A stretch of DNA of 25,276 bases from positions 1 through 25,276 of the forward strand of contig JAITVS010000012.1 in NCBI GenBank assembly GCA_031285685.1, read 5' to 3'. The position numbers and the translations under genes are program-made. Under the pieces are notes generated by a model that saw only the letters and a list, made by a program, of their open reading frames with translations, was not told the DNA's origin and searched no databases. Below are positions 1,188 to 25,015 of this stretch, one piece after another; position 1 is the first letter of the stretch, and every line of letters begins with the position of its first letter. Source of the stretch: Tannerella sp. GTDB lineage: Bacteria > Bacteroidota > Bacteroidia > Bacteroidales > Tannerellaceae.

Positions 1188-1223
1188 TTGCGGAACAAAG
1201 CATATTAATTGACCATAAAAAGC

Positions 1224-2846: not shown

Positions 2847-2889
2847 GACATGCAGGATAATAATAAATTCGCATTTTTTAATTGCACTT

Positions 2890-2903
2890 CATTTGATCAA
2901 ATG
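2890..2903. promoter_or_regulatory. perfect 14-bp palindrome CATTTGATCAAATG in the regulator-susC intergenic region (candidate operator)
   Basis: The sequence is read directly and is its own reverse complement. It lies 176 nt upstream of the susC-like start. Confidence 0.35.
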
Positions 2904-2956
2904 TAGTACAATTAAAAAAATCAAACTATTAACAATCAACAAAATAAATATTAACA

Positions 2957-3000
2957 TTGTAGATATAATTTATTCGATTTTCATCATTTTGTAGACATAA
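2957..3000 (+). repeat. two direct copies of TTGTAGAYATAA spaced 32 nt start to start
   Basis: ttgtagatataa at 2957-2968 and ttgtagacataa at 2989-3000 are 11/12 identical. Both lie upstream of the susC-like gene. Confidence 0.35.
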
Positions 3001-3078
3001 AATAGGATCTGAAAAGGTTGACAAAGGTTATTTGATTCTCTAATATTGCAGAAACTTTTTAACTAATTCAGAAATGTT

Positions 3079-6000: not shown

Positions 6001-6225
6001 ATGCGCCAGTTGCAGATAGGCTATGCTCTTCCGGTACCTATCCTGAAAAAAATACAGATAGAACGTTTACGCATCTACGCAAGTGCAGAAAATCTGTTTA
6101 CAATCACTTCTTATAAAGGAATCGACCCTGAATTTTCACGTACATCTGTGCTGAATGCCGGTATTGATACACATATCTACCCATTTACACGTTCCTATAT
6201 TTTCGGTTTACAACTTACATTCTAA
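3079..6225 (+). CDS. susC: SusC/RagA-family TonB-dependent outer membrane transporter
   Basis: 1048 aa. The N-terminus has a signal peptide followed by a carboxypeptidase-regulatory-like domain (VKGIVYDDLNEPAIGVNVIKKGTSEGTATNPDGEFEI). A plug region follows (VVIGYGTMKKSDLTGAISSV, ALQGKVSGVNI, PLYIIDGFP). The C-terminus ends in an aromatic residue (...GLQLTF) and a SusD gene follows directly. No STN/anti-sigma signalling domain is seen. Confidence 0.95.
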   Translation: MKITQIKNRLRTVSVIKITILSMCLFIFSVFTGIAQNTLVKGIVYDDLNEPAIGVNVIKKGTSEGTATNPDGEFEISLKQGDILVFSYIGFRAQEITYKGESFLTVRLSEDLESLDEIVVIGYGTMKKSDLTGAISSVNVDELASRATTNPAEALQGKVSGVNIRKSGGNAGAGVSVKIRGVKSFGDNEPLYIIDGFPGNINSVNPQDIASMEVLKDGAAAAIYGSTAANGVILITTKNGKKDELKIDFNAYVNSTHVAKKLELLDAKGYVQVHKQMYENYNGQFPNNAVELPGYITNPGNIDTNWQDEVFRSGLSQNYMVSLRGGSEKARYSISYNHADEKGVLLGNQFKQDNARMKLSVSKNIFDVDANLGFRATKNNQPQYSLKEAYMISPLVAVYDDTQEYGFGLATGNGLPSNRNVLADNYYRKAVTNSYFITANASVTANFTKWLNFRTSYSYQGDHQRYKYHTPPYVADVKSPTEYPYHSESSSYWQEQVIDNILTFNNTFGDHSLNVMAGSSITLQDYNWNSVAVEGKTIVYEVKDGQLVTSEKAAGFLDPNFSTINAGKGGTYTGEGSLYEYRRASFFGRLNYSYAGKYMIQATFREDGSSKFGKDSRWGFFPSVALGWRISEEGFFPQGGLISNLKFRASWGRLGNEQALGYYDFQALISTYNNLYGGSVQGSGSTPWPGSIAMGLANRDLQWETTDTKNIGFDYGLLKGKLSGSINYYYNQTEDMLITKKLAPSVGLLNPIMNVGKIRNTGVEIELNWNDKIGDFDYNVGINFTTTSNKVTELSDPNQALYGEGLKWGTEHFPTQTRVGKPIAGFYLYRTDGIFQNETEVAAHKNNAGELLQPNAKPGDIRFLDVNKDGSIDEDDKEYCGAAIPKVEANLSFGASYKGADISFLIGGGWGGKLYNANRYFYEGMSSGSNFLKTTLNAWTPQNTNTDVPRAVLQDMNGNARESDRFLEKGDYIRMRQLQIGYALPVPILKKIQIERLRIYASAENLFTITSYKGIDPEFSRTSVLNAGIDTHIYPFTRSYIFGLQLTF

Positions 6226-6253
6226 TCGTTTCACCATTCTAATATAAATAATC

Positions 6254-7765
6254 ATGAAGCATCTAAAATATACCGCCATTGTCCTATTATTAGCCGGAAC
6301 TATCGCTGGTTGCGAAGATTTCCTGACAGTACAATCGCCCGACGAACTGACTTCGGATTCATTCTGGAGAAATAAATCCGACGCCGAAGCCGGATTAGCA
6401 GCAGCTTACTCGAAACTGGAGGCATCGACTGATACATGGGAATTTCCCGAAGTCTATTTTCCGGTGGAAGCCTACCGCGAAGATATCATTAAACCGGGAT
6501 CGGATGCCTACAATTATCCGAACTGGATTGAACTGGCAAACTTCAACTACACTAATGGTAATTCCCAATTCACAGCCTACTGGCGTGATAATTACTACGG
6601 CATCAACTACAGTAACCAGGTCATAGAAAATCTTCCGAACATTCCGGCCGACATGATTTCCGAAGAAGACCGCGCCATGATACAGAACGAAGGCTATTTC
6701 CTGAGAGGATATTACCACATGAAACTGTTACTCAACTGGGAACAGATCATTATACGTGATAAATACATTACATCCACCAATGAATTGGACAAAGCGCCTG
6801 CAAGTCGTGCCGAAGCATGGGACTTTATCATCGAAAACTTCACCAAAGCGACTGCCCTTCCTGCCGGGCGAACCACCGAAACGTTAGGCCGTGCTACGAA
6901 AGGAGCTGCATATGCTTTTTTAGGCTGGGCACACCTGACAAGGGCGTATGAGGAACCCGACAAGAAAGAAACCCATCTGAATGCTGCGATCAGTGCGCTC
7001 AATCATGTTACCGGATATGAGTTAGTGAAAGATTTCAGCTCGCTTTTCGACGGAAGCAACAAAAATTCAAAAGAGGGGATATTCGAACTGCAATTGACGC
7101 TAAACACATCCAACGGCGCACGCTATCGCACACAATTACACCGTTTTATCGGCTGCTCGGAATTATGGGGCTGGGATGAAATCCTTCCGACGGAACAACT
7201 GATAAGCGCCTATAAAAAAGAAGGAAAAATCGCGACTACGGGGCGTTATGACAGCCGCTTCTATGAAACAATCTTTTTTAAAGATGAATACTTCAACGAC
7301 GAGGATGCCGCGCGTGTATACGGCAATACATATGATTACTGGTTCGAAGGTGCGGACAAGCCGACATTCAGAAAATATATGCCTGCCGATCTCAGCGGTT
7401 TGACAACCAGCTATTTTGCTCCGAATATCATACTGATGAGATACGTCAATGTGCTGTTGATGAAAGCGGAAGCCTTGAATGAATCAGGTCGTACAGCAGA
7501 AGCGATAACACTCATTAATCAAGTTCGCGAACGTGCCGACATGCCCGTCATGAATGGAACATCGCAACAGGAAGTACGCAGCCAGATCGAACATGAACGC
7601 ATGCTGGAGTTCCCATTGGAAAATATGCGTTTTTACGACCTGCGCCGTTGGGGAAAAACAAAAGAAGCCTTGCAGGCTGCAGGACGTACTAATTTCGATC
7701 CTGCTAAAAACAATTTTTATCCGATCCCCATACAGGAAGCCAATACAAATAACGCAATTAATTAA
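6254..7765 (+). CDS. susD: SusD/RagB-family nutrient-binding outer membrane lipoprotein
   Basis: 503 aa with a lipoprotein signal ending LLAGTIAGC. It sits 28 nt after the SusC gene. Typical SusD C-terminal segments are present (RYVNVLLMKAEALNE, ERMLEFPLENMRFYDLRRWG, PIPIQE). Confidence 0.93.
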   Translation: MKHLKYTAIVLLLAGTIAGCEDFLTVQSPDELTSDSFWRNKSDAEAGLAAAYSKLEASTDTWEFPEVYFPVEAYREDIIKPGSDAYNYPNWIELANFNYTNGNSQFTAYWRDNYYGINYSNQVIENLPNIPADMISEEDRAMIQNEGYFLRGYYHMKLLLNWEQIIIRDKYITSTNELDKAPASRAEAWDFIIENFTKATALPAGRTTETLGRATKGAAYAFLGWAHLTRAYEEPDKKETHLNAAISALNHVTGYELVKDFSSLFDGSNKNSKEGIFELQLTLNTSNGARYRTQLHRFIGCSELWGWDEILPTEQLISAYKKEGKIATTGRYDSRFYETIFFKDEYFNDEDAARVYGNTYDYWFEGADKPTFRKYMPADLSGLTTSYFAPNIILMRYVNVLLMKAEALNESGRTAEAITLINQVRERADMPVMNGTSQQEVRSQIEHERMLEFPLENMRFYDLRRWGKTKEALQAAGRTNFDPAKNNFYPIPIQEANTNNAIN

Positions 7766-7828
7766 AGAATATATAAACCCATTTTTTATCCAATAGAGTT
7801 TTTTCATTTTAATTATTAAACCGGGACA

Positions 7829-11018
<3,190 letters not shown>

Positions 11019-11031
11019 TATAAGATTTTAT

Positions 11032-12939
11032 ATGAAATATATTCTTTTCTTTTTAGTCATTCTCACAGGATGTTTTTCCTGTACGGAACAAAAACAAGTG
11101 CAATACAGCATTACAAGCAAATATGGCAACATTCTTGATATAAGCCATACTCCCGGAAATAAAACCCGTTGTTACGGATGGTTTACCGACAACGGCTCCT
11201 GGTACGGATTTACACCTCCTGAAAAAGAGAGATGGATCAATGGATTTTGCGGGCCGTTTCATCTGGATATGAACCGGCGGAAATGGATTTCGGAAAGTAT
11301 CGTCCATGTTTGCTTTGAAGAGGAAAGCAAAGCAACTGTTTACAAGCCCGATACAATCATTTATTATCCCGGAAAACTGTATATAAAGGCTACATCCGAA
11401 AACGGGACGATTGAACAGGAACTTATATTTATCAATGCGTCGACTGTTTTACTATCCGTAAAAAGCACTCACAAATCCCTCTTCCGTTTCTGGGGAGAAG
11501 CATTGGCAGACGATCACTCCTGCAACGCTGAAAAAAACTCATTTCTCATCACCTCGCCTGACGGCGAAGGAGTTGCAATCACATTTTCTCCGGAAACAGG
11601 ACTGCTGGCAAACGAAAACGGGTACGAGACATTATCTACGACATCCGGCAAAGCCGATATTGTCATATCTTTCTTTACGGATCCCGCTTCACAACGGTCT
11701 GTTATCCAAAAAGCCACATCCGTATTAGCTGAAGCCGAGTCATATAAACAACAGACATCCCGACGATGGGAGAACTATTTATCGAATGTAATCCGCAACG
11801 ATATGCCGGAAGAATTTAACCGCATCGCCGTAAAAGCAGTTGTTACACTTATTTCCAACTGGAAAACGTCACGTGGCGACCTTTTCCACGAAGGAGTCGT
11901 TCCCAGTCACGGAGTCGGTTATTTCATGGGATTCTGGGGATGGGATTCCTGGAAACATGCAGTTGCATTGGCTCATTTCGCACCTGACCTGGCTAAAAAC
12001 CAGGTGCGCTCCATGTTCGATTATCAAATGCCTGATGGAATGATTATCGACTGTATATACAGCGATGCGTCCGAAAATAATGCCAGAGACAGCAAGCCAC
12101 CATTAGCATCTTGGGCCGTAAACGAAATTTTTGAAACAACAAACGATACCCTTTTTGTCAAAGAGATGTATCCCAAGTTACTATCTTACTATCACTGGTG
12201 GTATAAAGACAGAGACCACAACAAAAACGGGATCTGTGAATTCGGCTCATGCGACGGAACGCTTGAAGCAGCCGCATGGGAAAGCGGTATGGATAATGCC
12301 ATTCGTTTCGATAACAGCAAAATGGTCAAAAACAGCGAAAATGCGTGGAGTTTTGACCAGGAGTCCGTCGACCTGAATTATTTTCTGGCATTTGAATGCA
12401 GGTTACTGAAAAAATTAGCTGCCGTTGCAGGCCAGGTTTTCGATGAGCCGGATCGCTCGGATCAGATAAATGATTACTTTTTCGTAGCAGAACCGGGCTT
12501 TTTCTTCGATAAACGTTTAGACGGCACTTTTGTTAAAGAAGAAGGAACAGAAGCATGCATCCCTTTATGGACACAGATCGCAACAACAGAACAGGCCGCA
12601 TGCTGCGTCAAACTATTTACCGACACCAATAAGTTCGCTACCTATATACCCTTCCCGACAATCGCCGCCGACAATCCGAAATTCATGCCTGCAGGTTACT
12701 GGAGGGGGCCGATATGGTTAGACCAGGTCTACTTTGGTGTTTCCGGAATACGCAAATACGGATACCGCTCCGAAGCTGACAAATTCACGGAACAGGTATT
12801 CTCCCGGCTGGAAGGATTAACGGCAGACAAACCGATTCATGAAAATTACGATACCCACAGCGGAAAGACATTAAAAGCGCCTCATTTTAGCTGGAGTGCG
12901 GCACATTTATTAATGCTGTATTGGGAATATGGAAAATAA
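11032..12939 (+). CDS. GH63-like (YgjK / glucosidase-I-like) six-hairpin glycoside hydrolase lipoprotein
   Basis: ATG 11032 gives the lipoprotein signal MKYILFFLVILTGC. Motifs GFWGWDSWKHA, WESGMDNAIRFD, YWRGPIWLDQVYF and HENYDTHSG fall in the order I recall for GH63-type (alpha/alpha)6 enzymes. The longer track ORF from 10951 overlaps the GH2 gene. Confidence 0.72.
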   Translation: MKYILFFLVILTGCFSCTEQKQVQYSITSKYGNILDISHTPGNKTRCYGWFTDNGSWYGFTPPEKERWINGFCGPFHLDMNRRKWISESIVHVCFEEESKATVYKPDTIIYYPGKLYIKATSENGTIEQELIFINASTVLLSVKSTHKSLFRFWGEALADDHSCNAEKNSFLITSPDGEGVAITFSPETGLLANENGYETLSTTSGKADIVISFFTDPASQRSVIQKATSVLAEAESYKQQTSRRWENYLSNVIRNDMPEEFNRIAVKAVVTLISNWKTSRGDLFHEGVVPSHGVGYFMGFWGWDSWKHAVALAHFAPDLAKNQVRSMFDYQMPDGMIIDCIYSDASENNARDSKPPLASWAVNEIFETTNDTLFVKEMYPKLLSYYHWWYKDRDHNKNGICEFGSCDGTLEAAAWESGMDNAIRFDNSKMVKNSENAWSFDQESVDLNYFLAFECRLLKKLAAVAGQVFDEPDRSDQINDYFFVAEPGFFFDKRLDGTFVKEEGTEACIPLWTQIATTEQAACCVKLFTDTNKFATYIPFPTIAADNPKFMPAGYWRGPIWLDQVYFGVSGIRKYGYRSEADKFTEQVFSRLEGLTADKPIHENYDTHSGKTLKAPHFSWSAAHLLMLYWEYGK

Positions 12940-15236: not shown

Positions 15237-15256
15237 ACAAAACTTTTTTGACTAAT

Positions 15257-15493
15257 TTACAGACTCCCATTACCGGTCTTTTTATCTTTCACAAAAAGAC
15301 CGAAAACCAAACTTCCCAGAATGGCACCGGAAACAGAAGTTCCTATCACCGAAGATGTAATAGGACACGTTCCTGTCGCACATCCTATATAATGCCAATA
15401 CAGATAACCACCTAAAGCACCAATGATTGCACCAATCACATACAAACCGTTTTTTACAATTGCACCTAATATATTTTTATTCATCGCATTCAA
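15257..15493 (-). CDS. small two-helix membrane protein with a CATGTC (CX4C) motif
   Basis: 78 aa with two glycine-rich hydrophobic segments. It is the first gene upstream of the thioredoxin and MarR genes. The start could be the downstream Met (MNKNIL). Confidence 0.55.
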   Translation of the reverse strand: MNAMNKNILGAIVKNGLYVIGAIIGALGGYLYWHYIGCATGTCPITSSVIGTSVSGAILGSLVFGLFVKDKKTGNGSL

Positions 15494-15530
15494 TCCTTTT
15501 AATACAATATACCTCTTTTATTAGAGTGTG

Positions 15531-15538
15531 CAAAGGTA
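15531..15538 (-). promoter_or_regulatory. -7 promoter box TACCTTTG for the membrane-protein/thioredoxin/MarR operon
   Basis: The reverse complement of caaaggta is an exact TAnnTTTG match, 38 nt upstream of ATG 15493. Confidence 0.55.
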
Positions 15539-15668
15539 CAAAAAATTCCTTTTCAACCCTCTAAAAAACAAGTTTATACCCGAAGAAGAACCGTGAATGG
15601 GTAACGATATAGAAATGAGCGAACTGCTTCGCTCTGCTTTCATTTACACCATCTCAAATAACTCAATG

Positions 15669-15676
15669 CAAAGGTA
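15669..15676 (-). promoter_or_regulatory. second upstream TACCTTTG box (possible distal promoter or small transcript)
   Basis: This is the same 8-mer as at 15531-15538. A 7-bp hairpin gagcgaa-ctgc-ttcgctc (15617-15634) lies between the two boxes. Confidence 0.3.
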
Positions 15677-15689
15677 ACGCTTCTTTGTG

Positions 15690-15741
15690 AAAAAGAAAAA
15701 TTCATCCCAAAATTCTTGTAATCGTGAGAATTTGGGGATGA
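15690..15741 (-). terminator. Rho-independent-type terminator on the minus strand at the island/core junction
   Basis: Arms 15702-15716 and 15727-15741 pair at 14/15 positions around a 10-nt loop. On the minus strand the stem is followed by aatttttcttttt. Confidence 0.5.
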
Positions 15742-15749
15742 TATAAAAC

Positions 15750-15779
15750 TTCGGAAGTTATTCGGAAATCATTTCCGAA
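15750..15779. promoter_or_regulatory. three TTCGGAA/TTCCGAA half-sites, including the perfect palindrome ttcggaaat-c-atttccgaa
   Basis: TTCGGAA occurs at 15750-15756 and 15761-15767, and the inverted TTCCGAA at 15773-15779. The 9+1+9 palindrome at 15761-15779 was verified by hand. Confidence 0.35.
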
Positions 15780-15864
15780 TTGGGAATACATAAACGGATG
15801 ATTTTGTTTCTCCTTTCAACTTGAAATAAATCAAGGCATTTGTTTGTCTTTCATTCAAGACTAA

Positions 15865-16185
15865 GTGTTTCATCACAAAATAATAACTTTTCATATGGCA
15901 ATGATTTTAACTGCTTTACGGATTGTGAAAACAGAGCACATTCAAAGCCCAATGATATGCAACGATACTGATTTTCATACAGCGTTGGAATTGATGAAAA
16001 TCCTAATCCAACACGCCGCCCGAATTTACGAAGCTTTGCCCGCTGAAATCGAAAAGCCCAAATAACCCAACCTAAAACAACAGTTTTTAGAAGCCTTGCC
16101 ACCCGAATTTTCCCGAAAAGATTACTTGCAAACTGCCCAAAGCGGATTAATAAACCATTGGGTGCATGATAAATATAGAAAATGA
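15865..16185 (+). pseudogene. decayed C-terminal fragment of a DUF3987-type (mobile-element primase/helicase-associated) gene
   Basis: Translation gives ...ITFHMAMILTALRIVKTEHIQSPMICNDTDFHTALELMKILIQHAARIYEALPAEIEKPK, then a stop (TAA 16063-16065), then PNLKQQFLEALPPEFSRKDYLQTAQSGLINHWVHDKYRK. This follows the C-terminal pattern I recall for Bacteroides DUF3987 proteins. Here it lacks the whole N-terminal body, is interrupted by a stop, and seems to be missing the segment between LQTAQS and GLI. Confidence 0.55.
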
Positions 16186-16537
16186 TAAATGTCTATAAAA
16201 TAAAAATCGACACTATCTCAAAAGTTGTGGGGCGATTTGACAGGACAAGAGTAGGCTGTATTTGCAGGTAATCACCAAAAATACTGCTGATGCGTTAAAT
16301 TTTAATATATTCTTGTAAGTTATTTATGGCAAGGCTATTATTTGCTATTTCTTATTTTTCGATTTGAAATTAAAATAAATTAGTAAATCAAATTATTACG
16401 ATTTTAGCACTCTTGTTACTTTTGTAAATATTTGACAATAAGTAAAATATAAAACCAAGAAGCGTCAGAAAATTCAATTTGTCAAATTCTTGAAAATTAA
16501 CATATCACTACTACACCAAAAATAAAAAATACTTTCT

Positions 16538-17560
16538 TCACTCCAATAGCAATTTCAAATATCTACTAACTATTTGCGTATCTCCTACATGCCCGAGTGC
16601 TGTAAGTACAATGTTTTTTTGTGGAGAAACTAATAAATATTGTCCCCCATTACCTTGAATAAAATAATCTCCATTTTTACATATCCATAAAAATAACCCA
16701 TAAGCTGAACGGGGGAATGCTTCTACTGTATTATACTCTTTCACAATCATGTGTTGAGGTGTTGTCATTTTTCTTATCCACTCCGGTGGGATAACTTGCA
16801 AACCATTCCAAATCCCTTGCTGAATCAGCAATTTTCCTATCTTATGAAGGTCGTTGTTGAATAAATAAAGTCCTGTAGCTCCAGCACAATAATTTCCATA
16901 ATCTTTCCAAAAGAAATTTGTTATTTCTAATTTAGAAAAAATTTTATCATTAGCAAAGTGAGATAAATTTTGTCCTGTTATTTCTTGAAAAATGACAGAT
17001 AGTAGGAAGGCAGAAGCATTTGAATAAAGAAAATGTTCGCCGGGTTCATATAATAAAGGCTCGTTACATAAAAAATGAAGAAAAGTCGCAGGAGATATGT
17101 CTTTTATATCTGCTTGAAACAATAACTGTTTATCATAACCGGTTGTATGTGTAAATAGATGTCTTAATGTCACCTTTTGTAGTTTGCTTATATTATCTTT
17201 ATTTTCTATAGTAACTTTATCTTTAATGATAGACCAAATTTTAGTATCAAGATTGATTTGTTCCTCTTTGTATTTTGCTTGCATATCGCAAATTAATATG
17301 CCATAACACAATGCAACGATTAGTTTACTTATTGAGCGAATTTCGTGTAGCTCTTTTTCTTCTATAAAATAATACTGATATTTATTATTTATATCTGAAA
17401 CTATAATACTATCCATAGTAAGAGAATTATTGCGAATATCTTTTACTGCTTGCATGTCGGCAATAATATTATCAAACGTCTCCTTGTACATGTCTGTATT
17501 TTGGATTTTTATGCCAATTATATTCTTTCTTTTCTCCTTCGTTCCAAACTCTATCTTCAT
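16538..17560 (-). CDS. beta-lactamase-fold serine hydrolase (class C / family VIII esterase / D-aminopeptidase-like), operon gene 8
   Basis: SxxK motif SISK (S76, K79 of the long ORF), YxN motif YSN (FLYSNASAF), and a late GNGGQYLLVSPQKNIVL segment. The longest ORF overlaps the upstream gene by 89 nt. Alternative ATGs lie at 17491 (20-nt overlap) and 17455 (16-nt gap). Confidence 0.78.
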   Translation of the reverse strand: MKIEFGTKEKRKNIIGIKIQNTDMYKETFDNIIADMQAVKDIRNNSLTMDSIIVSDINNKYQYYFIEEKELHEIRSISKLIVALCYGILICDMQAKYKEEQINLDTKIWSIIKDKVTIENKDNISKLQKVTLRHLFTHTTGYDKQLLFQADIKDISPATFLHFLCNEPLLYEPGEHFLYSNASAFLLSVIFQEITGQNLSHFANDKIFSKLEITNFFWKDYGNYCAGATGLYLFNNDLHKIGKLLIQQGIWNGLQVIPPEWIRKMTTPQHMIVKEYNTVEAFPRSAYGLFLWICKNGDYFIQGNGGQYLLVSPQKNIVLTALGHVGDTQIVSRYLKLLLE

Positions 17561-18749
17561 AGTCGCACCATTCTGGAGGGAAAAAACCTGATGGGAGTTT
17601 GTTGATAAATTGCTGATTGAAATCTTTTATTTGAGTTAACAAATTATCCCTATCAACATCATTATTATAATTACAGATACAGTTGATAATAGGAGAAACA
17701 ATATATTCGCCTAGCTTAAAGTCAAACATAAAACTGTGCGTTCTGTGATATGAATCATATTTCTCGCCACAATTCTTTATTTTATGTGTATTATATTTAT
17801 AACCGCTCGCTATATCATTATATTGAATGTTAAAATGTTGCATCAAAGGAATGTCGCGTCCAGCAGATTCAAGGTCACGACATACAATCCGTTTTATTTG
17901 GAAATCCTTATTAATTGTTAGCAACATATTTTGTGCATGTGCTTCAAGTTCAATACCGCCAAAAATCAAAGCATCAAAATATGTGTGGAATAGTGGTTTT
18001 AGAATATTATCTATTAAAAAAACTGCAAGTGGTAAAGTTTGCTTCTTAAATAACTGAATAATTAGTGGCTCATCTTGCTCTATACAAGGAGTTCTATCTG
18101 TGCCGGGTATATATTCTTTGCTGAATAGTGAAAAAAAAGGAATTAAAGATTCGCACTCATCAATATATGGATATGGAGAACTTTCTCTAAATAATACCCC
18201 TAATTCATACATAACATTACCTAACGGTAAATAGGCTATTTTTCCGTAATCCTCTCGAAAAATACTAAATCTTTGATTGACTTTATTTTCGTCTATTATT
18301 CGTTTTAAAATATTTGTAACTTCACAACTTGATTGAATTTTTTCCTTTGTCATATGTCTTGGTATTCTTCCAAGAATTTCAGTATAGGCAAGTTTTATGA
18401 AAGTCTTATTTGTTAAGTTAAAGACAGTACGCCCACTTGCTGTGGGAACAACTATAATATCTAAAGGTTTTTCACTTATATTTGGGGAAATAAATTCATT
18501 TTCTACCATATCAGGATGAACAACAATACAATCTTTTGGAATAGACCAACAAGGCATATTACCAAACTCCTCTACAGTCACTTTGTCATTGAATCTGAAT
18601 ATTTTAGCTGCAAAGGATATAGTTCCCGACAATGGTCTTGTATTCTCGGATGTCGTATTGTTAATATTACTTCTTGAACCATCATTAACATATCGCTCCG
18701 CCTTAATGAAAGATTCTATTGGGTTACTTATAAATTCTTCTATTTTCAT
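17472..18749 (-). CDS. IucA/IucC-like (NRPS-independent-siderophore-synthetase-like) ATP-dependent ligase, short form, operon gene 7
   Basis: 425 aa. The ordered motifs are VVHPDM, VVPTASGRTV, IKLAYTEILGRIPR, FSIFRED and GIELEAHAQNMLLTINKDFQIKRIVCRDLES. I recall these matching the PTSSxRT, K...R and EAHxQN...RD ATP/Mg-binding motifs of AcsD/IucA-type enzymes. The start overlaps the upstream stop as ATGA. Confidence 0.55.
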   Translation of the reverse strand: MKIEEFISNPIESFIKAERYVNDGSRSNINNTTSENTRPLSGTISFAAKIFRFNDKVTVEEFGNMPCWSIPKDCIVVHPDMVENEFISPNISEKPLDIIVVPTASGRTVFNLTNKTFIKLAYTEILGRIPRHMTKEKIQSSCEVTNILKRIIDENKVNQRFSIFREDYGKIAYLPLGNVMYELGVLFRESSPYPYIDECESLIPFFSLFSKEYIPGTDRTPCIEQDEPLIIQLFKKQTLPLAVFLIDNILKPLFHTYFDALIFGGIELEAHAQNMLLTINKDFQIKRIVCRDLESAGRDIPLMQHFNIQYNDIASGYKYNTHKIKNCGEKYDSYHRTHSFMFDFKLGEYIVSPIINCICNYNNDVDRDNLLTQIKDFNQQFINKLPSGFFPPEWCDYEDRVWNEGEKKEYNWHKNPKYRHVQGDV

Positions 18750-19567
18750 TTTTGAATCTTTTCTTCTAATATCATTTTCTCTATCTTGACAAGGCTGTCA
18801 AAACATAGTTTTAAATATTCTTGTTCGGTATATTTGTTTTTTTGTTCTTCCGAACAACGGACTTCTAATGTCAATTCAATATCGGAATTGTATTTAGAAA
18901 TATTTCTGACAAGATTTTTCCAATCAATATTTCCATCAAGAGGAAGTAAGTGTTTATCGGCAATTCCGTCATTATCATTTAAGTGTACACATGTTAATTT
19001 ATCGCCAAAAATATTCCATGGAAAAGTTTCTACATTTTTTGTAAAGGCATTTGCATGTCCACTGTCAAAACAAAATTTCAGTTTGTCACTTTCTAATTTT
19101 TTAAAAACAAATTCAAGATAATCAAGTCTGCGAAGATTTTCCAAACAAAGAATAATTCCATATTTCTCACATACATCTAAAATTCTGGAAATACGTTTTA
19201 TTCCCGATTCACACATTAATGGGGGAGCTGTGCCTCCAGTAATATGTGCGACAACAGTTTTAATCCCATAATTATGTGCAAATGAAATTTCATTTATGAG
19301 TTGTTTTTCATATTTATCAGCTTCTGCATCTTCTGTCCAAAGAGCGTTAACATATTGAGAATCTATCAGTTGCCCATCAATAAATTTTTTATAAGAAAGA
19401 TGTAATGTTTCTATGTTTAACTTTGATTTATTTATCAAATCAATATATTCGAGGGGATGGTATTGCGAGTATATAAAAACACCGTCAAATCCAGCATCTT
19501 CTATGAGGCTGATTCTTTCCGCCGGTTCTGCCGACATTTTATAATTAAAACCAATGTTCTTTTTCAT
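18746..19567 (-). CDS. xylose-isomerase-like TIM-barrel protein (sugar-phosphate isomerase/epimerase / AP-endonuclease-2 superfamily), operon gene 6
   Basis: 273 aa. The metal-ligand motif series is LCLENL, FDSGHANAF, VHLNDNDGIADKHLLPLDGNIDW and TLEV. Confidence 0.78.
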   Translation of the reverse strand: MKKNIGFNYKMSAEPAERISLIEDAGFDGVFIYSQYHPLEYIDLINKSKLNIETLHLSYKKFIDGQLIDSQYVNALWTEDAEADKYEKQLINEISFAHNYGIKTVVAHITGGTAPPLMCESGIKRISRILDVCEKYGIILCLENLRRLDYLEFVFKKLESDKLKFCFDSGHANAFTKNVETFPWNIFGDKLTCVHLNDNDGIADKHLLPLDGNIDWKNLVRNISKYNSDIELTLEVRCSEEQKNKYTEQEYLKLCFDSLVKIEKMILEEKIQK

Positions 19568-19574
19568 TTGTTTT

Positions 19575-20279
19575 TTAATTTAGGATGTGTAACAAATCTG
19601 AAAACAAATTAATCACTTTTACTGTTTTTTGTAAACTTGATGGTAAATGTTTTTTTCGAAAATTAAACAGGCAACTGTCAATTCCTATATTCAAAGCTCC
19701 TTGAATATCTGTTTCTAAATTATCTCCAACGATTAAGATATTTTCTTTATCAATACTGTAACAAGAAATTATCTTTTCGATAAATTGTGAATCAGGTTTT
19801 TGTACTCCTAAATCCTCCGAAGAATAAAAACCATCTATGTAAGTTCTTATTCTTGAATTTTCAATTTTATTCTTTCTTGGATAATTCGTTCCATTGGTAG
19901 CTATAATTTTAATTATACTTTTATCAATAGCCTTCAATGTTTTATAAACACTATTGATAAGGACTCCTTTTGTTGAAAATTCAAGTTGCTTTGCTGAGAA
20001 ATCTGAAGGATTAATATCATTTTGCTTTTGCAAAGAACTTAAAAAGACCGATGCTCGCTCAACTCTAAATTTGGTAAAATCATCTTGATTAACTAATATT
20101 TGATGACTTTTGTGTACATTTTTGTTAATCGTTTTATATAAGTGATATATGTTTTCAGTATATGATAATCCAAAATATTCGCAAGCCATTTTTAATGCTT
20201 TACGCTCCGTTTTCTCATAATCAAACAATGTATCGTCCAAATCGAAAATAATGAGTTTATATTTTGTTTTATCAACCAT
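19575..20279 (-). CDS. HAD-superfamily phosphatase, YjjG-like (nucleotidase-like) subfamily IA, operon gene 5
   Basis: 234 aa. HAD motif I is IIFDLDDTLFD, motif II is IIATNGT, motif III is a Lys in QKPDSQF, and motif IV is VGDNLETDIQGALNIGIDS. Confidence 0.82.
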   Translation of the reverse strand: MVDKTKYKLIIFDLDDTLFDYEKTERKALKMACEYFGLSYTENIYHLYKTINKNVHKSHQILVNQDDFTKFRVERASVFLSSLQKQNDINPSDFSAKQLEFSTKGVLINSVYKTLKAIDKSIIKIIATNGTNYPRKNKIENSRIRTYIDGFYSSEDLGVQKPDSQFIEKIISCYSIDKENILIVGDNLETDIQGALNIGIDSCLFNFRKKHLPSSLQKTVKVINLFSDLLHILN

Positions 20280-20284
20280 AACAA

Positions 20285-20974
20285 TTAAAATACATTTAAG
20301 TCATCTCGCTCAACAATTAACGAATAGTCTTCTTGACTGGAAAGTTCCAAATCGAATTTTTCTCTTTCCGGTAAAATAAAGGCTTCAAACTGTTCATTTC
20401 TTTCATCACATTTTCTTTTAACTTCCTCACGAGATAAGTTTTGTTCTCCATCACGAGCCCTACTTATTCTCCTACTTACCTCTACGTCTCTATTGCACAT
20501 TAAGAAAATTCCAAATGTTTGGGGGAGTTTTTCAAGAAATGCACTTCCGACACCTTCAATGATAGTTATCGCAACTTGTGCGTTGACCTCTACAAATTCA
20601 TTTCTTTTCTTTGGCTTAAAATAACAGTTTTTTCCCTGAGTTAAAGAATAAACTATAACTTCCGGAGCAGAGAGATAATACGATTCTTTAAATGAGGTTG
20701 TATATTCGCTTTCACGAGTTTTCCCATTTATGTCAGTCCAAACTTTTTTCCCACTTTTTCGCATTTTTGTATCAAGGACAAATTCGTCCATATCAATACA
20801 ATTAACATTCAAGCCGAGAGCCTTAACTTCTGTCACAAGTTCTTCACTTAATGTTGTTTTCCCAGCACCACCATTGCCAGACAAAAAGATAAATCTATAG
20901 TCTTTATCCAAGCAAAAATCAATTACCTTCTTGACAATTTGTTTACTTACATACGATTTTTTTACTTCTTTCAT
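20285..20974 (-). CDS. P-loop kinase, uridine-kinase/phosphoribulokinase-like, operon gene 4
   Basis: 229 aa. Walker A is LSGNGGAGKTT and the Walker-B-like segment is ITIIEGVG. The lid-like VSRRISRARDGEQ and later FEAFILPEREKFDLEL parallel the Udk/PRK layout. Confidence 0.7.
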   Translation of the reverse strand: MKEVKKSYVSKQIVKKVIDFCLDKDYRFIFLSGNGGAGKTTLSEELVTEVKALGLNVNCIDMDEFVLDTKMRKSGKKVWTDINGKTRESEYTTSFKESYYLSAPEVIVYSLTQGKNCYFKPKKRNEFVEVNAQVAITIIEGVGSAFLEKLPQTFGIFLMCNRDVEVSRRISRARDGEQNLSREEVKRKCDERNEQFEAFILPEREKFDLELSSQEDYSLIVERDDLNVF

Positions 20975-21004
20975 TTGACGAAATTATTTAAATTGTTATA
21001 ATTA

Positions 21005-21586
21005 CTATTTATTGAGAATATATTTGTCAAACCATTCCACATGTTTGAATATATGCAAATCATTATTTGATAAATATGCGACTATATTGGGACTATCACT
21101 ATTATCAATGAAATATACAGTTTCAGACATTTTAGTAATCTGTCCGATATTATCCATTGTCATAAAATATCTTGTTCGCACCTTTTCTTCAGAAATGGTG
21201 TCAGCATTTTCTGTATCGTATCGCTTTTTTGTTCGTTCTATGTTAATATCAACCGAACTTGTTCCAATAAAAAACGATACAATGTTATACTCATATTGTT
21301 CTTTTATCAATGCTATTCTATCAATTTTGTGTTGAGCTGTTGGACATAATTCATAAATAAAATCATTTCCTTTTTTACAAACTCTATACATTTTATATTC
21401 AACCAATTTATCAGCTCTTCGATACCCCTCTGAGAGTTTATTGCCTTTAGTATCAAAAAAAAATCTTTTATAAACGTCTGAACCAATGTATTCTATCTCT
21501 TGATAAGGTTCATAAGAAAAAATACGGCTTCCTACAACTGTCTTTCCTGAACCAATACTCCCAACAAGAAGATAAATTGTTTTCAT
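21005..21586 (-). CDS. small P-loop kinase (zeta-toxin / AAA_33-like), operon gene 3
   Basis: 193 aa. Walker A VGSIGSGKT sits at residues 8-16, and an Asp follows in IGSDVY. The size and layout are those of a compact nucleoside/small-molecule kinase. An ATGA overlap couples it to the preceding 60-aa ORF. Confidence 0.65.
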   Translation of the reverse strand: MKTIYLLVGSIGSGKTVVGSRIFSYEPYQEIEYIGSDVYKRFFFDTKGNKLSEGYRRADKLVEYKMYRVCKKGNDFIYELCPTAQHKIDRIALIKEQYEYNIVSFFIGTSSVDINIERTKKRYDTENADTISEEKVRTRYFMTMDNIGQITKMSETVYFIDNSDSPNIVAYLSNNDLHIFKHVEWFDKYILNK

Positions 21587-21765
21587 AAGACTACCTCCTT
21601 CTTGATTTGTTCAATTTGATTAAAATCGTCATCATCCCAGTATGTCTTTTTATTCCATTCAGAAAGTGCTGAGTCAAAACGTAACGACTCTTTATTTAAT
21701 TGCTTAATGATGTCAATAAATGAATCTGTATAAGTTGTATTTTCTATGATATGTATTTCTTTCAT
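21583..21765 (-). CDS. 60-aa acidic hypothetical protein, operon gene 2
   Basis: The ORF is bracketed by ATGA overlaps with both neighbours, which argues it is translated. It contains an acidic patch YWDDDDFNQIEQ and no recognisable domain. Confidence 0.5.
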   Translation of the reverse strand: MKEIHIIENTTYTDSFIDIIKQLNKESLRFDSALSEWNKKTYWDDDDFNQIEQIKKEVVL

Positions 21766-23300
21766 TTCCTTTTTAATTCTCGTTTTTCTTTTTTTAAATA
21801 ATCTTTAGCTAACTTAACAGATTTTTCAAATTCCATATCGGGTTGTCTATCTATCTTTTTAATACTCGATACCACATCCGAAATAGAACTTTCACAATCC
21901 TTGATTTTTACCAATTTTCTCTCCTTACTCAAATTAGTATTATCTTTTACAAGAAATTTATGTTGTAAAGGGTAAGCAGTAATTAATAAGGCAGAATTTC
22001 GGAAACACAAGTCTGTCCGTGTAGTACACTTTTTTATAGTTTCATTCAATTTATCTATCACGCTGTTTATAGTTTCTGCATCTACTTCTTCAAGTTGTAT
22101 TTCATTCATCAAACTATCATACCGTATCCCCTCTTTACTATTTAAGCCAATTTCTGTGCCAACATACGTATTTGCATAGGCAATCGCTTCATTTACTATT
22201 CTATGCTTTTCTTCGATATTACTATTTATTCGTATTTTTTTAATATTATTCCTCGCAAAAGCATAATAATACTCCTTTACAATTTTACTTCTTGCTTCTT
22301 CAGACAAAGAAGCATATATCTTAATACTTTGACGAAGACGATAAACTTGTTCTGTTTGTGAAAATCCAAGAGTAGATTCTTCTACATTATTTATATATTT
22401 CCAAATATCTAAGTCAGATAAAGTATCAATACTTGCTGTTGTAGCCTCAAACATATTGGTAATATTATTTTTAATGCAATTCATTTTGTCATTATCATTA
22501 CTGTGAGGACACGATTGTGTTCTGCATTTTTTCTCATTGCGCTCAATACAAACACCTTTCATATGGATAATTGTACCGCGAGAAAGAATTAATTTAATCT
22601 TATTTTCATTCAATATGGCATCATTCATTTGAGCAATATCCCTATCTAAAAAAATACCAGCTAAATGCCTGTAGCCTTTGAGTGTCATTTTTAAAAATTC
22701 TTGACTTTCATTTTGTTTGCTGTTCTCGAATAATCTGATAGATTCTATTTCTGCCTCACGAGTTCCTTTTCTTATGGTTTCGACAGCCTCGTTCCAGTCT
22801 TCTTTGTCTGCTTGGTATAAAGACCATCCTAAATCATCAAGATTAAGCATTACGCTAACGTATTGTTTTGACCTATGCTTTCCACCAATGACGATATTAT
22901 TCAATTCCCTATCACATTTTTTTATTGCTTCCTGTACTTTTTTGCCAATTCTAACCCTATTCGCATTTTGCTTGGTATGAAATAACATTTCACTTATTTG
23001 TAGTCCTAACATGATTGCATTTTCATAACGTCTGTTTTTTATTTCCTTATTTAATATTGCAATAAGACTCATTCTATGTTCATAGACAATCAATATTATA
23101 CCAAATATCAAAAGAGGAACTATTAGGATAATAATGGTTATAGCAGTTTGAAAAAATTTATCACTCATAACGTAACCTATGGCAAGACCAATGATAACTG
23201 ACACTATTGATTCTATAAAGAATTGTCCCCAAGATAATATTTTAGGATTAGAAAGTAGTTCTTCAAAATTATTTTTAATTTTTCGCTTCAACATATTCAT
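21762..23300 (-). CDS. membrane-anchored all-helical protein of unknown function, operon gene 1
   Basis: 512 aa. Two N-terminal TM helices span about aa 24-45 and 52-73. A long Lys/Glu-rich helical region follows. A single Cys/His cluster reads C251-x7-C259-x4-C264-x-H266-x8-C275. No domain was recognised. Confidence 0.7.
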   Translation of the reverse strand: MNMLKRKIKNNFEELLSNPKILSWGQFFIESIVSVIIGLAIGYVMSDKFFQTAITIIILIVPLLIFGIILIVYEHRMSLIAILNKEIKNRRYENAIMLGLQISEMLFHTKQNANRVRIGKKVQEAIKKCDRELNNIVIGGKHRSKQYVSVMLNLDDLGWSLYQADKEDWNEAVETIRKGTREAEIESIRLFENSKQNESQEFLKMTLKGYRHLAGIFLDRDIAQMNDAILNENKIKLILSRGTIIHMKGVCIERNEKKCRTQSCPHSNDNDKMNCIKNNITNMFEATTASIDTLSDLDIWKYINNVEESTLGFSQTEQVYRLRQSIKIYASLSEEARSKIVKEYYYAFARNNIKKIRINSNIEEKHRIVNEAIAYANTYVGTEIGLNSKEGIRYDSLMNEIQLEEVDAETINSVIDKLNETIKKCTTRTDLCFRNSALLITAYPLQHKFLVKDNTNLSKERKLVKIKDCESSISDVVSSIKKIDRQPDMEFEKSVKLAKDYLKKEKRELKRK

Positions 23301-23351: not shown

Positions 23352-24311
23352 CTAAACCCGTTCAACAATCTGAATAAATACTTTCGCTACCTCAGTTTCA
23401 TCAGGAATAGAAACAAACACCAACTGCGATAATTCCAACAAGTAAACATCTTTCAAAAAGTTCCACAATGCAGGAAAATCGGTAACAAGAGGCGATTGTA
23501 TAATTTCCTTTTCGCCCCAATTTTCAGGCGTATCAAAGGCTTGTCTATCATGTTCTAAAAGTTCGGCAAAATCCTGTTTAAAATCAGGCGTTTGAATATA
23601 CGCCGCACATTCTTCATCTTTTGCCAAGTAATACAAGTCGTAAAAATGCCTGATTTTAGCGGCAAGAGCGCGGCGCGGATTTTCGGTAAACGAAAAACGA
23701 AACAACGACACCAATTTTTCAATCATCGTTTGCCGTTTATCTAACACATTCAGCACAAACGGCTGTAATCCGTATTCTTCAATGGCAGCAGCCTGATTGT
23801 TTACTGTGAGATATTCCGTAATAAACGAGGTGATTTCCAGTTTTACATACGGATATGGATTCGCAAATGAATTAATTTCAACAATCATCCTGTTTGGAAT
23901 AATACTGTCCACTTTTCCCAACAAAGTAGGATATTCAAAAATGGATTTGCGAAACATTGAGCCTTTACTCGTTACACCATTTTCTACAATTTCAGTTAGT
24001 TCTGTGGTTATTTCCTTTTCTATATTTCGAATTTTTGTTTTCACGGCGTTGCCGCTCAAATTTTCGTTAATAATAGCAATATCAATATCTTCCGAGAACC
24101 GATTGATAAGGCGATAACCTTTTGAAAGCGAAGTACCTCCTTTGAACACAGCATTTTCCACCTCATTACAGCAAGACAAGCGGTTAAGAGCCAACGTAAT
24201 CCAATAATCTTTTTCCACAAAAGCCGGAATAATATTGAGATGCTTTGCCGTGAATGTGATAAGCGCAGAAAAATCCGCGGTATTCGTATGTAAATTCATC
24301 GTATGTACCAT
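23352..24311 (-). CDS. abiEii: AbiEii/AbiGii-family nucleotidyltransferase toxin
   Basis: 319 aa. FKGGTSLSKGYRLINRFSEDIDIAI matches the KGGTxL...RxSxDID nucleotidyltransferase core. The internal Met at 24299 gives a classic ATGA overlap with the AbiEi stop and may be the true start. Confidence 0.82.
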   Translation of the reverse strand: MVHTMNLHTNTADFSALITFTAKHLNIIPAFVEKDYWITLALNRLSCCNEVENAVFKGGTSLSKGYRLINRFSEDIDIAIINENLSGNAVKTKIRNIEKEITTELTEIVENGVTSKGSMFRKSIFEYPTLLGKVDSIIPNRMIVEINSFANPYPYVKLEITSFITEYLTVNNQAAAIEEYGLQPFVLNVLDKRQTMIEKLVSLFRFSFTENPRRALAAKIRHFYDLYYLAKDEECAAYIQTPDFKQDFAELLEHDRQAFDTPENWGEKEIIQSPLVTDFPALWNFLKDVYLLELSQLVFVSIPDETEVAKVFIQIVERV

Positions 24312-25015
24312 TTTTTTGGATTAGACAAAATTTCACTTGAAATATCTAATTTGTAAGACGATTGGTGATTCAACGCCTTGTAAAGAACTGTCGTATCTTC
24401 ATTTTCGTTGTTCGTTTCCAGAATTGCTCCCAAAAGAGCAATAGTCGAAGGCGAATATTTTATTGCCAATCGTTTAGCCGTATTAATTTGCTCCTGCGTT
24501 AGTTGCTTAAATAACACCAATAGACGACGGCAAATCTCATCAGGCATCGCATCGGGAATACTTTTGAAAAAACGCAAACAATCCAACAACTGCAATACAG
24601 GGACATTTGTCTTTGTAATCGTATTTTGTTGAATAATAAAACTAATCCGATAATTGCCGCGAGTAATCGGTTTCTTTTCCTTACTGACAGCAATTTGCAG
24701 CATTGCAGGCACTTGCGTTGTCAATCCCAATTTATTAAAAATAGAATAACCTGTTAGATAACCAATAATTTTACCGTTTTTTTCAAGTAAATCTTTAACA
24801 GTTTGGAAAGTATCGGGCGGAAGTTCACCGAATTTGCTCACTTGCGGTTTGTAAAAACGACCTTTACACAAACGCCTGATTTGCCCTGCCGCTACCACAT
24901 TATTCAAAATCTTGGTAACAGTATTCTGCTTATCCAACGGCACAGGAAAATCCGCTGCCGTAAAAACAAATCCGTCAGAGAATTTAGCAATCGTTTTTTT
25001 TATTGTATCAGTCAT
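24296..25015 (-). CDS. abiEi: AbiEi-like / DUF6088-family antitoxin-transcriptional regulator
   Basis: 239 aa with an N-terminal winged-helix-like segment (VFTAADFPVPLDKQNTVTKILNNVVAAGQIRRLCKGRFYKP). It sits immediately upstream of and overlapping the AbiEii gene. Confidence 0.75.
   Translation of the reverse strand: MTDTIKKTIAKFSDGFVFTAADFPVPLDKQNTVTKILNNVVAAGQIRRLCKGRFYKPQVSKFGELPPDTFQTVKDLLEKNGKIIGYLTGYSIFNKLGLTTQVPAMLQIAVSKEKKPITRGNYRISFIIQQNTITKTNVPVLQLLDCLRFFKSIPDAMPDEICRRLLVLFKQLTQEQINTAKRLAIKYSPSTIALLGAILETNNENEDTTVLYKALNHQSSYKLDISSEILSNPKKWYIR

Follow-up and report, generated by a model that had tools for sequence, protein, structure and literature searches.

A shortened NIS-fold ligase in a putatively mobile seven-gene cassette of Tannerella sp., with a possible role in genetic conflict

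The DNA analysed here is a stretch of 25,276 nucleotides (nt), referred to below as the window, which spans positions 1 to 25,276 of contig JAITVS010000012.1 (assembly GCA_031285685.1), a Tannerella sp. metagenome-assembled genome (MAG), and which encodes a 425-amino-acid (aa) protein related to the IucA/IucC ligases (protein P0001 is 100% identical to it). Judged by its sequence and its predicted structure, this open reading frame (ORF) is a genuine shortened relative of the IucA/IucC ligases in which the ATP-using active site is retained. It is very probable that the protein is a true adenylating enzyme with the fold of the NRPS-independent siderophore (NIS) synthetases, and that it belongs to a conserved cassette which is not a siderophore system. 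The explanation that accounts best for the data, and towards which we lean with moderate confidence, is an intact, minimised NIS-fold ligase within a mobile seven-gene cassette for which a role in conflict is the most probable one.

The initial annotation, which was made from the sequence alone, had read the ORF as a minimal, divergent NIS-type member, and had named the lack of any significant IucA/IucC hidden Markov model (HMM) or structural match, or the loss of the predicted ATP-binding residues, as what would speak against this. All five motifs were located exactly where it had placed them, namely HP at residue 78, PTASGRT at 102, IKLAYTEILGRIPR at 118, which contains K119-x11-R131, LEAHAQN at 268, and RD at 291-292, with 18 residues from N274 to D292. 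The Pfam IucA_IucC model (PF04183) matched the ligase significantly (42.8 bits, gathering score 25, E 6e-11), and the match was restricted to model positions 128-238 of 239, so that the N-terminal half of the canonical domain (positions 1-127) had no counterpart. The FhuF model (PF06276), which had been proposed as a second comparison, gave a weak match to the C-terminal region of 18.6 bits, below its cut-off of 25.2; it exceeded the cut-off in the relative P0199 (27.6 bits), and precomputed PF06276 matches are present in several homologues. A single-sequence search of the PDB sequences with the ligase gave nothing relevant and a profile was required. The family profile, made from 63 aligned homologues, matched the petrobactin NIS synthetase AsbB at E 2.5e-10 over query residues 99-292, and AcsD, SbnC and IucC weakly over the same residues.

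The AlphaFold2 (AF2) model of the ligase, computed from the 63-sequence alignment, had a mean pLDDT of 94.1 and a pTM of 0.93, and the whole chain including the N-terminus was confident. When the model was compared with the PDB by Foldseek, the top 50 matches were all NIS synthetases (AsbB, SbnC, IucA, IucC, DesD, AcsD, NcdF, DfoC and AlcC), and the best of them was AsbB (E 4e-16, query-normalised TM-score (TMq) 0.68, TMt 0.51). The Pfam match, the AsbB profile match and the exclusive structural match to NIS synthetases support the assignment to a minimal, divergent NIS type, and neither of the adverse outcomes named beforehand occurred. The residues Ser275, Arg277, Lys291, Arg303, Arg370, His440, Glu442, Asn443 and Asp460 of DesD are conserved across all NIS types, and in that enzyme the adenine is sandwiched by His153 and His440 while Arg303 additionally touches the acyl carbonyl (PMC9356276). 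The equivalents of the conserved set in the HMM alignment are S105, R107, K119, R131, R188, H271, Q273, N274 and D292 of the ligase, where Q273 is a glutamine as in AcsD, against Glu442 in DesD. S105, R107, T108, K119, R131, R188, E269, Q273, N274 and D292 were invariant in 63 of 63 homologues, as were P102 and T103, and the P102, T103, S105, R107 and T108 positions were aligned by HMM to AcsD and AsbB. The machinery for ATP and Mg binding and for acyl-adenylate formation therefore appears intact, and since all the ATP-phosphate and Mg ligands of the NIS enzymes are retained, the ligase is predicted to make such an adenylate.

The PTxSxRT motif starts at residue 102 of the ligase as against about 272-275 in AcsD and DesD. 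The ligase is short because about 170 residues before this motif are absent, which correspond to the thumb domain and part of the fingers, and not because of a C-terminal loss, as the weakly FhuF-like C-terminal part appears to be kept; the full thumb-fingers-palm architecture of about 550-650 aa is not found in the 425-aa protein. The thumb and fingers domains form the dimer interface of canonical NIS enzymes (PMC9356276), so the oligomerisation or partner binding of the ligase probably differs from theirs. An exhaustive profile search over 1.84 billion representative sequences returned 1309 matches at E<=1e-3 and 390 at E<=1e-30, the best 150 of which were nearly all 400-430 aa long and aligned end to end. 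The short form of about 400 aa is native, and it comprises about 390 representative clusters. It carries two family-specific motifs. The N-terminal one (E18/R19/N22/G24/S25/S27) was invariant in all 63 homologues and kept in seven of the eight fusions checked, P0185 having E at the position of G24. The other, HSFMFDFK, is a candidate substrate-site element and a selective pattern, as 23 loci were recovered from 185,579 species genomes with this one peptide pattern.

The ligase gene is the sixth of seven genes in a minus-strand operon (16538-23300), whose junctions measure -4, 5, 7, 30 and 175 nt, and the seven genes appear to form a translationally coupled cassette. This neighbourhood, which the initial annotation had left undescribed, is the more interesting result. 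The GC content of the cassette is 30.4%, against 44% for the adjoining SusC/SusD/GH2 polysaccharide locus. Its first gene encodes a 512-aa tetratricopeptide-repeat-like (TPR) protein with predicted transmembrane (TM) helices, which is homologous to the partner protein C1 of the TPR-type systems described below (hhalign 99%, E 5e-18). The AF2 model of this protein was all-helical with a pLDDT of 78, a moderate quality due to the homologue search having returned only four sequences, and its Foldseek matches were helical-repeat or TPR proteins. The similarity of the 193-aa kinase-like protein to zeta toxin in the PDB was confined to the P-loop level, and the family profile of the 229-aa kinase aligned across the whole domain with phosphoribulokinase (E 6.7e-9). 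The 234-aa HAD phosphatase scored 122 bits with TIGR02254, below the cut-off of 159.9.

The TIM-barrel protein encoded directly upstream of the ligase has the invariant residues H56, H108, E143, D168, H171, H195, D204, H206 and E235. These follow the order H-H-E-D-H-H-D-H-E, which we take to be the metal-ligand set of endonuclease IV, and eight of them pair with residues of Nfo that are presumably its ligands (H109, E145, D179, H182, H216, D229, H231 and E261), while the pairing of H56 with H69 was not aligned. The best named match was the CbiR model (35.4 bits against a cut-off of 105, E 7.8e-9), the nfo model gave 20.1 bits against 129.65, and the nearest solved relatives were the uncharacterised MJ1311 and TTHB071. 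Because of the endonuclease IV-type ligands and of CbiR as the best named model, the protein is read as a probable metallo-phosphoesterase rather than a sugar isomerase. A link to petrobactin, for which AsbB is the best NIS match and AsbF is a PF01261 TIM barrel, was considered and rejected, as AsbF was not among the matches of the TIM protein, whose nearest relatives and ligands are those just given.

The ORF of the seventh gene, a serine hydrolase or acyltransferase of the beta-lactamase fold, overlaps the 3' end of the ligase gene by 89 nt at most, counting from the first ATG, with M24 and M36 as alternative starts. This overlap was seen again in orthologous loci, and both genes are fused in P0082. 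SxxK and YxN were kept in 15 orthologues, and the nearest solved relatives of the hydrolase were the amidases Lsa45, 6-aminohexanoate-dimer hydrolase and D-peptidase. With the TIM metal ligands and the SxxK and YxN residues conserved, these two partners of the ligase look active.

The same seven genes were found in identical order in a Clostridiales MAG (L001), Saprospiraceae (L005), Coriobacteriia (L008), two Clostridia/Clostridiales MAGs (L010 and L011) and a metagenome contig (L035). In Carboxylicivirga (L006) the order matches up to the contig end, which falls inside the zeta-like kinase gene, and in L009 the kinase and HAD genes are reordered. The ligases of these cassette-form loci share 46-55% identity. 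Two simpler forms were also found. The C2/beta-lactamase form consists of the ligase, a protein of about 770 aa that could not be annotated (C2, with two C-terminal TM helices) and a beta-lactamase-fold hydrolase, and it is present in Vibrio parahaemolyticus, Rhodopseudomonas palustris, Bacteroidales, Actinomycetota, Oscillospiraceae, Christensenellaceae and one Thermoplasmata archaeon. The TPR form consists of the ligase and the 2-TM/TPR protein C1, with NUDIX, His_Phos_1, YdjC or methyltransferase genes in some loci. A membrane-anchored partner accompanies the ligase in every recurring multi-gene architecture. The partners are also fused to the ligase itself, as TIM::ligase in P0048, P0049, P0053, P0054, P0061, L010 and L011, as ligase::beta-lactamase in P0082, and as a Peptidase_S66 (LD-carboxypeptidase family) in P0206, where it takes the place of the beta-lactamase-fold hydrolase.

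Four large relatives have a C-terminal ligase domain behind a beta-rich middle domain of about 270 aa (at about residues 340-610 in P0180, 340-612 in P0182, 185-452 in P0185 and 430-687 in P0197) and differ in their N-termini, which are HD-CE in P0180 and P0182, DUF4062 in P0185 and GT4-conflict in P0197. These effector fusions all retain the ATP and Mg residues. Their genes are solitary; two stand beside restriction-modification (RM) genes, one of them also beside a Lit-like Peptidase_U49 gene. For the middle domain no match was obtained in Pfam or PADLOC, C2 was not similar to it, and neither of the two resembled the TPR partner. In a neighbour-joining tree the ligase phylogeny follows gene architecture, with one clade each for the cassette form, the TPR form and the effector fusions, and with the ligases of the C2/beta-lactamase form as a paraphyletic group.

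The ligase loci are spread sparsely and patchily across phyla, one archaeon included, with the 23 loci from 185,579 genomes mentioned above. Large serine recombinases adjoin the cassette in L001 and L035, and in L035 the cassette and its recombinase are flanked by housekeeping genes. The Vibrio locus has an integrase and a transposase, and Mob_Pre and Phage_integrase are among the flanks of related loci. In L012 a tRNA (5867-5940) lies directly upstream of the system, and L013 has a group II intron (3188-3265). The cassette thus appears to have been horizontally transferred and to move between distant bacteria. The phage and plasmid collections gave remote matches only. One is a 407-aa 'IucA/IucC family protein' on the Methylocystis iwaonis plasmid NZ_CP143317.1 (L028, locus 8971-11415), which is 27% identical to the ligase, aligns from residue 13 and represents a separate short NIS-like subfamily; it adjoins an MFS transporter and a DUF1259 gene amid metal-resistance genes. 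The others are two Staphylococcus 'phage' records, OR844989.1 (230426-231112) and OR850016.1, one of them 282 kb long, with a 27%-identical match to the ligase core that is probably the canonical Sbn NIS synthetase in host-derived sequence and not a phage gene.

Defence genes are frequent beside these loci. In the window, the DNA directly upstream of the cassette encodes a type IV toxin-antitoxin abortive-infection pair, AbiEi/AbiEii, at a distance of 51 nt from the first cassette gene; its two genes overlap by 16 nt and have a GC content of 37%. A type I RM system stands immediately upstream of the ligase system in L027, and the flanks contain a PDC-S37/Hhe-like giant helicase in L010, a DpdF/PsyrT-like helicase in L025 and an NB-ARC/nSTAND3 (STAND) NTPase in L001. 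In L003 of Vibrio parahaemolyticus, the candidate system PDC-M60 (3393-8375), composed of a Y4jQ-like 1112-aa protein and two response-regulator-like proteins, is directly upstream of the three-gene ligase system, and an integrase is downstream. Among 14 loci of the cassette type or the C2/beta-lactamase type, 93 ORFs in the flanks matched 301 models of PADLOC-DB 2.0.0 (among them type I RM, PDC-S37/Hhe, DpdF/PsyrT, PDC-M60, PDC-S01 and, at 1.8e-114, GajA), as compared with 26 models for 95 ORFs flanking TPR-type loci by the same procedure. DUF4062, the N-terminal domain of one effector fusion, has been demonstrated experimentally to act in anti-phage systems as their TIR-like NADase effector (2026 preprints).

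By such association, the chances that the cassette has a defence or conflict role against phages or other mobile elements are roughly even. In the mechanism that we propose, the ligase would adenylate a carboxylate with ATP and hand the acyl group to an amine or a hydroxyl. The kinases, the HAD protein and the endonuclease IV/CbiR-like phosphoesterase would make or trim a phosphorylated substrate; the PRK-like, YjjG-like, CbiR-like, NUDIX and His_Phos partners point to a nucleotide or pentose-phosphate type. The serine hydrolase would most likely cleave or edit the acyl conjugate, by analogy with the S66 peptidase MccF, which detoxifies compounds of the acyl-adenylate type, and the membrane TPR protein may be the sensor, scaffold or effector. 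More tentatively still, the NIS-like ligase of about 400 aa may define a previously unrecognised prokaryotic immune or conflict family in which an acyl-adenylate-forming enzyme, taken over from siderophore chemistry, makes or senses an acyl conjugate that serves as a signal or toxin. The conjugate of such a family would derive from a nucleotide or a sugar phosphate and would be restrained by the dedicated serine hydrolase, of the beta-lactamase fold or S66. Its outputs would be interchangeable, whether the membrane TPR protein, the protein with two C-terminal TM helices, or a fused NADase (DUF4062/NIR), HD-CE or GT4 domain, and the seven-gene cassette of the window would be its most elaborate form.

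Several observations weigh against the conflict interpretation or against parts of the enzyme assignment beneath it. H271, the equivalent of His440, was kept in 52 of the 63 homologues and replaced by N or Q in the other 11. That H78 corresponds to His153 is probable from the motif order and from P0206, which matches Pfam from model position 90, and the exact identity of the missing N-terminal segments likewise depends on the alignment. The TPR-type relatives show little association with defence genes, and the tally of PADLOC matches in the flanks given above is an aggregate over about 16 loci that is not set against a formal genome-wide background, for which a value of about 4% was reported for random genes in the NIR study. 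The ligase, the TIM and HAD proteins, the hydrolase, the TPR partner, C1, C2 and the fusions had no match in PADLOC 2.0.0, and the two P-loop kinases gave weak P-loop matches only. We found no paper that links IucA/IucC, NIS or FhuF-like proteins to defence or conflict, and no description of the cassette in the literature. Finally, a set of kinases, phosphatase, phosphoesterase, ligase and hydrolase resembles a metabolic pathway equally well.

This last point leads to the strongest rival, which we regard as rather unlikely, namely that the cassette is an ordinary small-molecule pathway riding mobile islands and unrelated to immunity, in which the ligase forms one amide or ester bond. Such a pathway could serve a secondary metabolite, cofactor remodelling or salvage (for example cobamide nucleotide-loop-type chemistry), an osmolyte or envelope decoration. 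The six soluble proteins are all metabolic-type enzymes, and the PRK-like kinase resembles phosphoribulokinase. Few defence genes adjoin the TPR-type relatives, which occur with genes for NUDIX, His_Phos_1, YdjC and methyltransferase proteins, and the separate short IucA/IucC protein of Methylocystis plasmids adjoins an MFS transporter. The cobamide variant would draw on a CbiR-like phosphodiesterase together with kinase, phosphatase, amidase and amide-ligase activities, and the cobamide-remodelling CbiR is the best named match of the TIM protein (7.8e-9), but its score of 35 bits is far under the cut-off of 105. Moreover, in the window and in 14 related loci no system was preceded by a riboswitch of any kind and no cobalamin riboswitch was present, which leaves the cobamide version unsupported. 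Against a pathway of any kind stand the lack of a transporter, regulator or riboswitch with the cassette in the window and the 14 related loci, the patchy distribution across phyla including an archaeon, flanks dense in defence genes and recombinases, and the fusions to the DUF4062 NADase, HD-CE and GT4-conflict domains, which fit housekeeping metabolism poorly.

An improbable alternative is a module for nucleic-acid end-healing and sealing or damage processing, like Pnkp/Hen1 or T4 Pnk/Rnl in tRNA-cleavage conflicts. Its parts would be a PNK-like AAA_33 kinase, the HAD phosphatase, an endonuclease IV-like 3'-end cleaner and the adenylating enzyme as an unconventional ligase. The TIM protein does retain the trinuclear-metal ligand pattern of endonuclease IV, an AAA_33 match and a HAD phosphatase are present (the AAA_33 Pfam family includes polynucleotide-kinase-type P-loop kinases), and NUDIX and methyltransferase genes occur in TPR-type loci. 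However, NIS-fold enzymes are known only as carboxylate-adenylating, and the ligase has no nucleotidyl-lysine ligase motif. The HAD protein belongs with the capped, YjjG-type phosphatases of small molecules, the second kinase resembles phosphoribulokinase, the zeta/AAA_33 similarity goes no further than the P-loop, and the serine amidase and the membrane TPR protein have no role in such a module.

Still less probable is the role that some database names imply, in cryptic siderophore synthesis or as a ferric-siderophore reductase of the FhuF type. P0019, P0118 and the Methylocystis protein carry such NCBI names ('ferric iron reductase', with the Gene Ontology term siderophore biosynthetic process), and there is the weak FhuF match of 18.6 bits. 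That match is sub-threshold, and only one Cys is found in the last 45 residues of the ligase, whereas the 2Fe-2S site of FhuF is a C-terminal four-cysteine motif. Precursor enzymes such as a decarboxylase or monooxygenase, an exporter, Fur-type regulation and a dedicated receptor were absent from the operon and from about 35 related loci, as the initial annotation had stated for the partner genes of the window. Its remark that no TonB-dependent uptake gene is nearby has to be amended, as a SusC gene lies in the window, but this sole TonB-dependent gene belongs to a glycan locus unrelated to the operon.

The weakest reading, in which the gene would be a pseudogene left by truncation of a full-length NIS synthetase, agrees with a length about 170 aa below the canonical one and with a match to half of the Pfam model, but it is refuted by the end-to-end matches of about 390 clusters of 400-430 aa, the invariant N-terminal motif, the confident fold of the whole chain in the AF2 model and the translational coupling of the start to the upstream gene.

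The rest of the window contains a polysaccharide utilisation locus (1209-12939, plus strand, 44% GC), which is complete and unrelated to the ligase operon (Table 1). A 1.3-kb AT-rich stretch (15237-16537) separates the cassette from thioredoxin and MarR genes; it may be an island boundary, since it lacks tRNAs, Rfam matches and ORFs of 90 aa or more. On the minus strand, at about 15260-15484, a small ORF encodes a peptide with two TM helices. Over the whole window there were no tRNAs, no Rfam matches and no convincing flanking repeats that mark island edges, and sigma-70-like promoter counts were at chance level with a tool that does not cover Bacteroidota promoters. Among the related loci, a DUF3800-VI RNA lies near the ligase system in L027 (17367-17421), and SAM and FMN riboswitches of neighbouring genes lie near the systems in L011 (12949-13036) and L025 (19689-19803).

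Table 1. Positions of the ligase, its motifs, the cassette genes and the neighbouring genes in the window
Feature	Position	Strand	Remarks
IucA/IucC-like ligase (gene 6)	17472..18749	-	425 aa, ATG to stop; N-terminally minimised NIS-synthetase fold
ERYVNDGSRS motif, E18-R19-x2-N22-x-G24-S25-x-S27	18669..18698	-	Family-specific; missing from the canonical NIS alignment region
H78-P79	18513..18518	-	H78 invariant; probable equivalent of the adenine-stacking His153 of DesD
PTASGRT, residues 102-108	18426..18446	-	S105/R107/T108 = DesD Ser275/Arg277/Thr278; PTASIRT in AcsD; gamma and beta phosphate binding
K119...R131 segment	18357..18395	-	Equivalent to DesD Lys291 and Arg303 (phosphate binding; Arg303 also acyl carbonyl); invariant
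LEAHAQN, residues 268-274	17928..17948	-	H271/Q273/N274 = DesD His440/Glu442/Asn443, AcsD H444/Q446/N447; adenine and Mg site
R291-D292	17874..17879	-	D292 = DesD Asp460, Mg ligand; D292 invariant
HSFMFDFK, residues 338-345	17715..17738	-	Family-specific, near-invariant helix motif
Membrane-anchored TPR-like protein (gene 1)	21762..23300	-	512 aa; 2-3 N-terminal TM helices by hydropathy; helical solenoid
P-loop kinase-like protein (Zeta_toxin/AAA_33)	21005..21586	-	193 aa; PF06414 26.7 bits; syntenic
P-loop kinase, PRK/uridine-kinase family	20285..20974	-	229 aa; PF00485 39 bits
HAD-IA phosphatase, YjjG-like (nucleotidase-like)	19575..20279	-	234 aa; HAD_2 67.7 bits; syntenic in all cassette-type loci
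Xylose-isomerase-like TIM barrel	18746..19567	-	273 aa; PF01261 82 bits; stop overlaps ligase start (ATGA)
Beta-lactamase-fold serine hydrolase or acyltransferase (gene 7)	16538..17560	-	340 aa; PF00144 84 bits
AbiEi (DUF6088)/AbiEii pair	23352-25015	-	Type IV toxin-antitoxin, abortive infection; PADLOC AbiEii 1.6e-88, AbiEi 4.9e-48
TPR/LuxR regulator	within 1209-12939	+	Polysaccharide locus
SusC-like TonB-dependent transporter	3079-6225	+	Only TonB-dependent gene in the window
SusD	6254-7765	+	Polysaccharide locus
GH2 beta-galactosidase	7878-11018	+	Polysaccharide locus
MGH1/GH63-like hydrolase	10951-12939	+	Polysaccharide locus

To our knowledge, work on NIS synthetases has so far dealt solely with their part in siderophore production and virulence. 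Here a compact form of their fold, with the adenylation machinery kept, is found in many phyla and recruited to mobile cassettes and to proteins with immune-type effector domains. If the defence role is true, carboxylate adenylation followed by amide or ester conjugation would be a new enzymatic principle in bacterial immunity and the cassette a new kind of system; if the role is metabolic, gut and environmental anaerobes would carry a new pathway that is spread by horizontal transfer. In both cases, the annotations 'ferric iron reductase' and 'siderophore biosynthetic process' mislead for about 390 protein clusters. The thumb-less architecture also indicates the parts of the NIS fold that ATP binding requires.

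As compared with known systems, the TIM protein is closest to the endonuclease IV (Nfo)/CbiR branch, from which it differs in falling under every curated cut-off, in having MJ1311 and TTHB071 as nearest solved relatives and in the absence of a cobalamin riboswitch, while eight of the nine Nfo zinc-ligand positions pair with its invariant residues and it shares a sub-threshold match to CbiR. MccF, a Peptidase_S66 and the self-immunity peptidase of microcin C, cleaves the acyl phosphoramidate amide of aminoacyl-adenylate analogues (PMC3817062). The microcin C system and the cassette both pair an adenylate-forming enzyme with a serine hydrolase, and in P0206 this hydrolase is an S66 enzyme fused to the ligase. 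Any analogy would be functional only. The cassette lacks an MccA-like peptide, an MccB (E1-like) enzyme and an exporter, and the hydrolase of the window has the beta-lactamase fold. The DUF4062/NIR NADase anti-phage proteins (Swarozyc, Evangelion and Avs2-type) share the DUF4062 domain with one ligase clade, where it is N-terminal and where sister proteins have HD-CE or GT4-conflict in the same position, and this is the effector-swapping pattern of immune proteins. The DUF4062 preprints mention an IucA-like domain for none of the published systems, and the window ligase is unfused and encoded in a multi-enzyme operon.

The closest comparison remains that with the NIS synthetases AsbB (3TO3), AcsD (2W02), IucA/IucC (5JM8/6CN7), DesD (7TGK), SbnC, AlcC and NcdF. 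The ligase shares with them the fingers and palm fold (Foldseek E 4e-16 to 1e-10, TMq 0.57-0.68) and the PTxSxRT, K...R and E-x-H-x-Q-N...D motifs. In contrast, its sequence identity to them is 12-18%, it is without the thumb domain, and it has its own N-terminal and HSFMFDFK motifs. In about 35 loci no genes for siderophore precursors, export or uptake accompany it; its companions, in mobile or defence regions, are a membrane-anchored protein and a serine hydrolase. With this support from HMM, structure and residues, and with no siderophore partner genes in the operon or the related loci, the reading as a minimal NIS-type ligase on a non-siderophore substrate stands, with amide- or ester-forming chemistry as its predicted activity. 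As it agrees with the NIS synthetases in HMM match, fold and active site and departs from them in architecture and siderophore context, we file it as a minimal NIS-fold variant and not as a siderophore synthetase. The ligase represents a well-supported, unannotated enzyme family in an unusual context.

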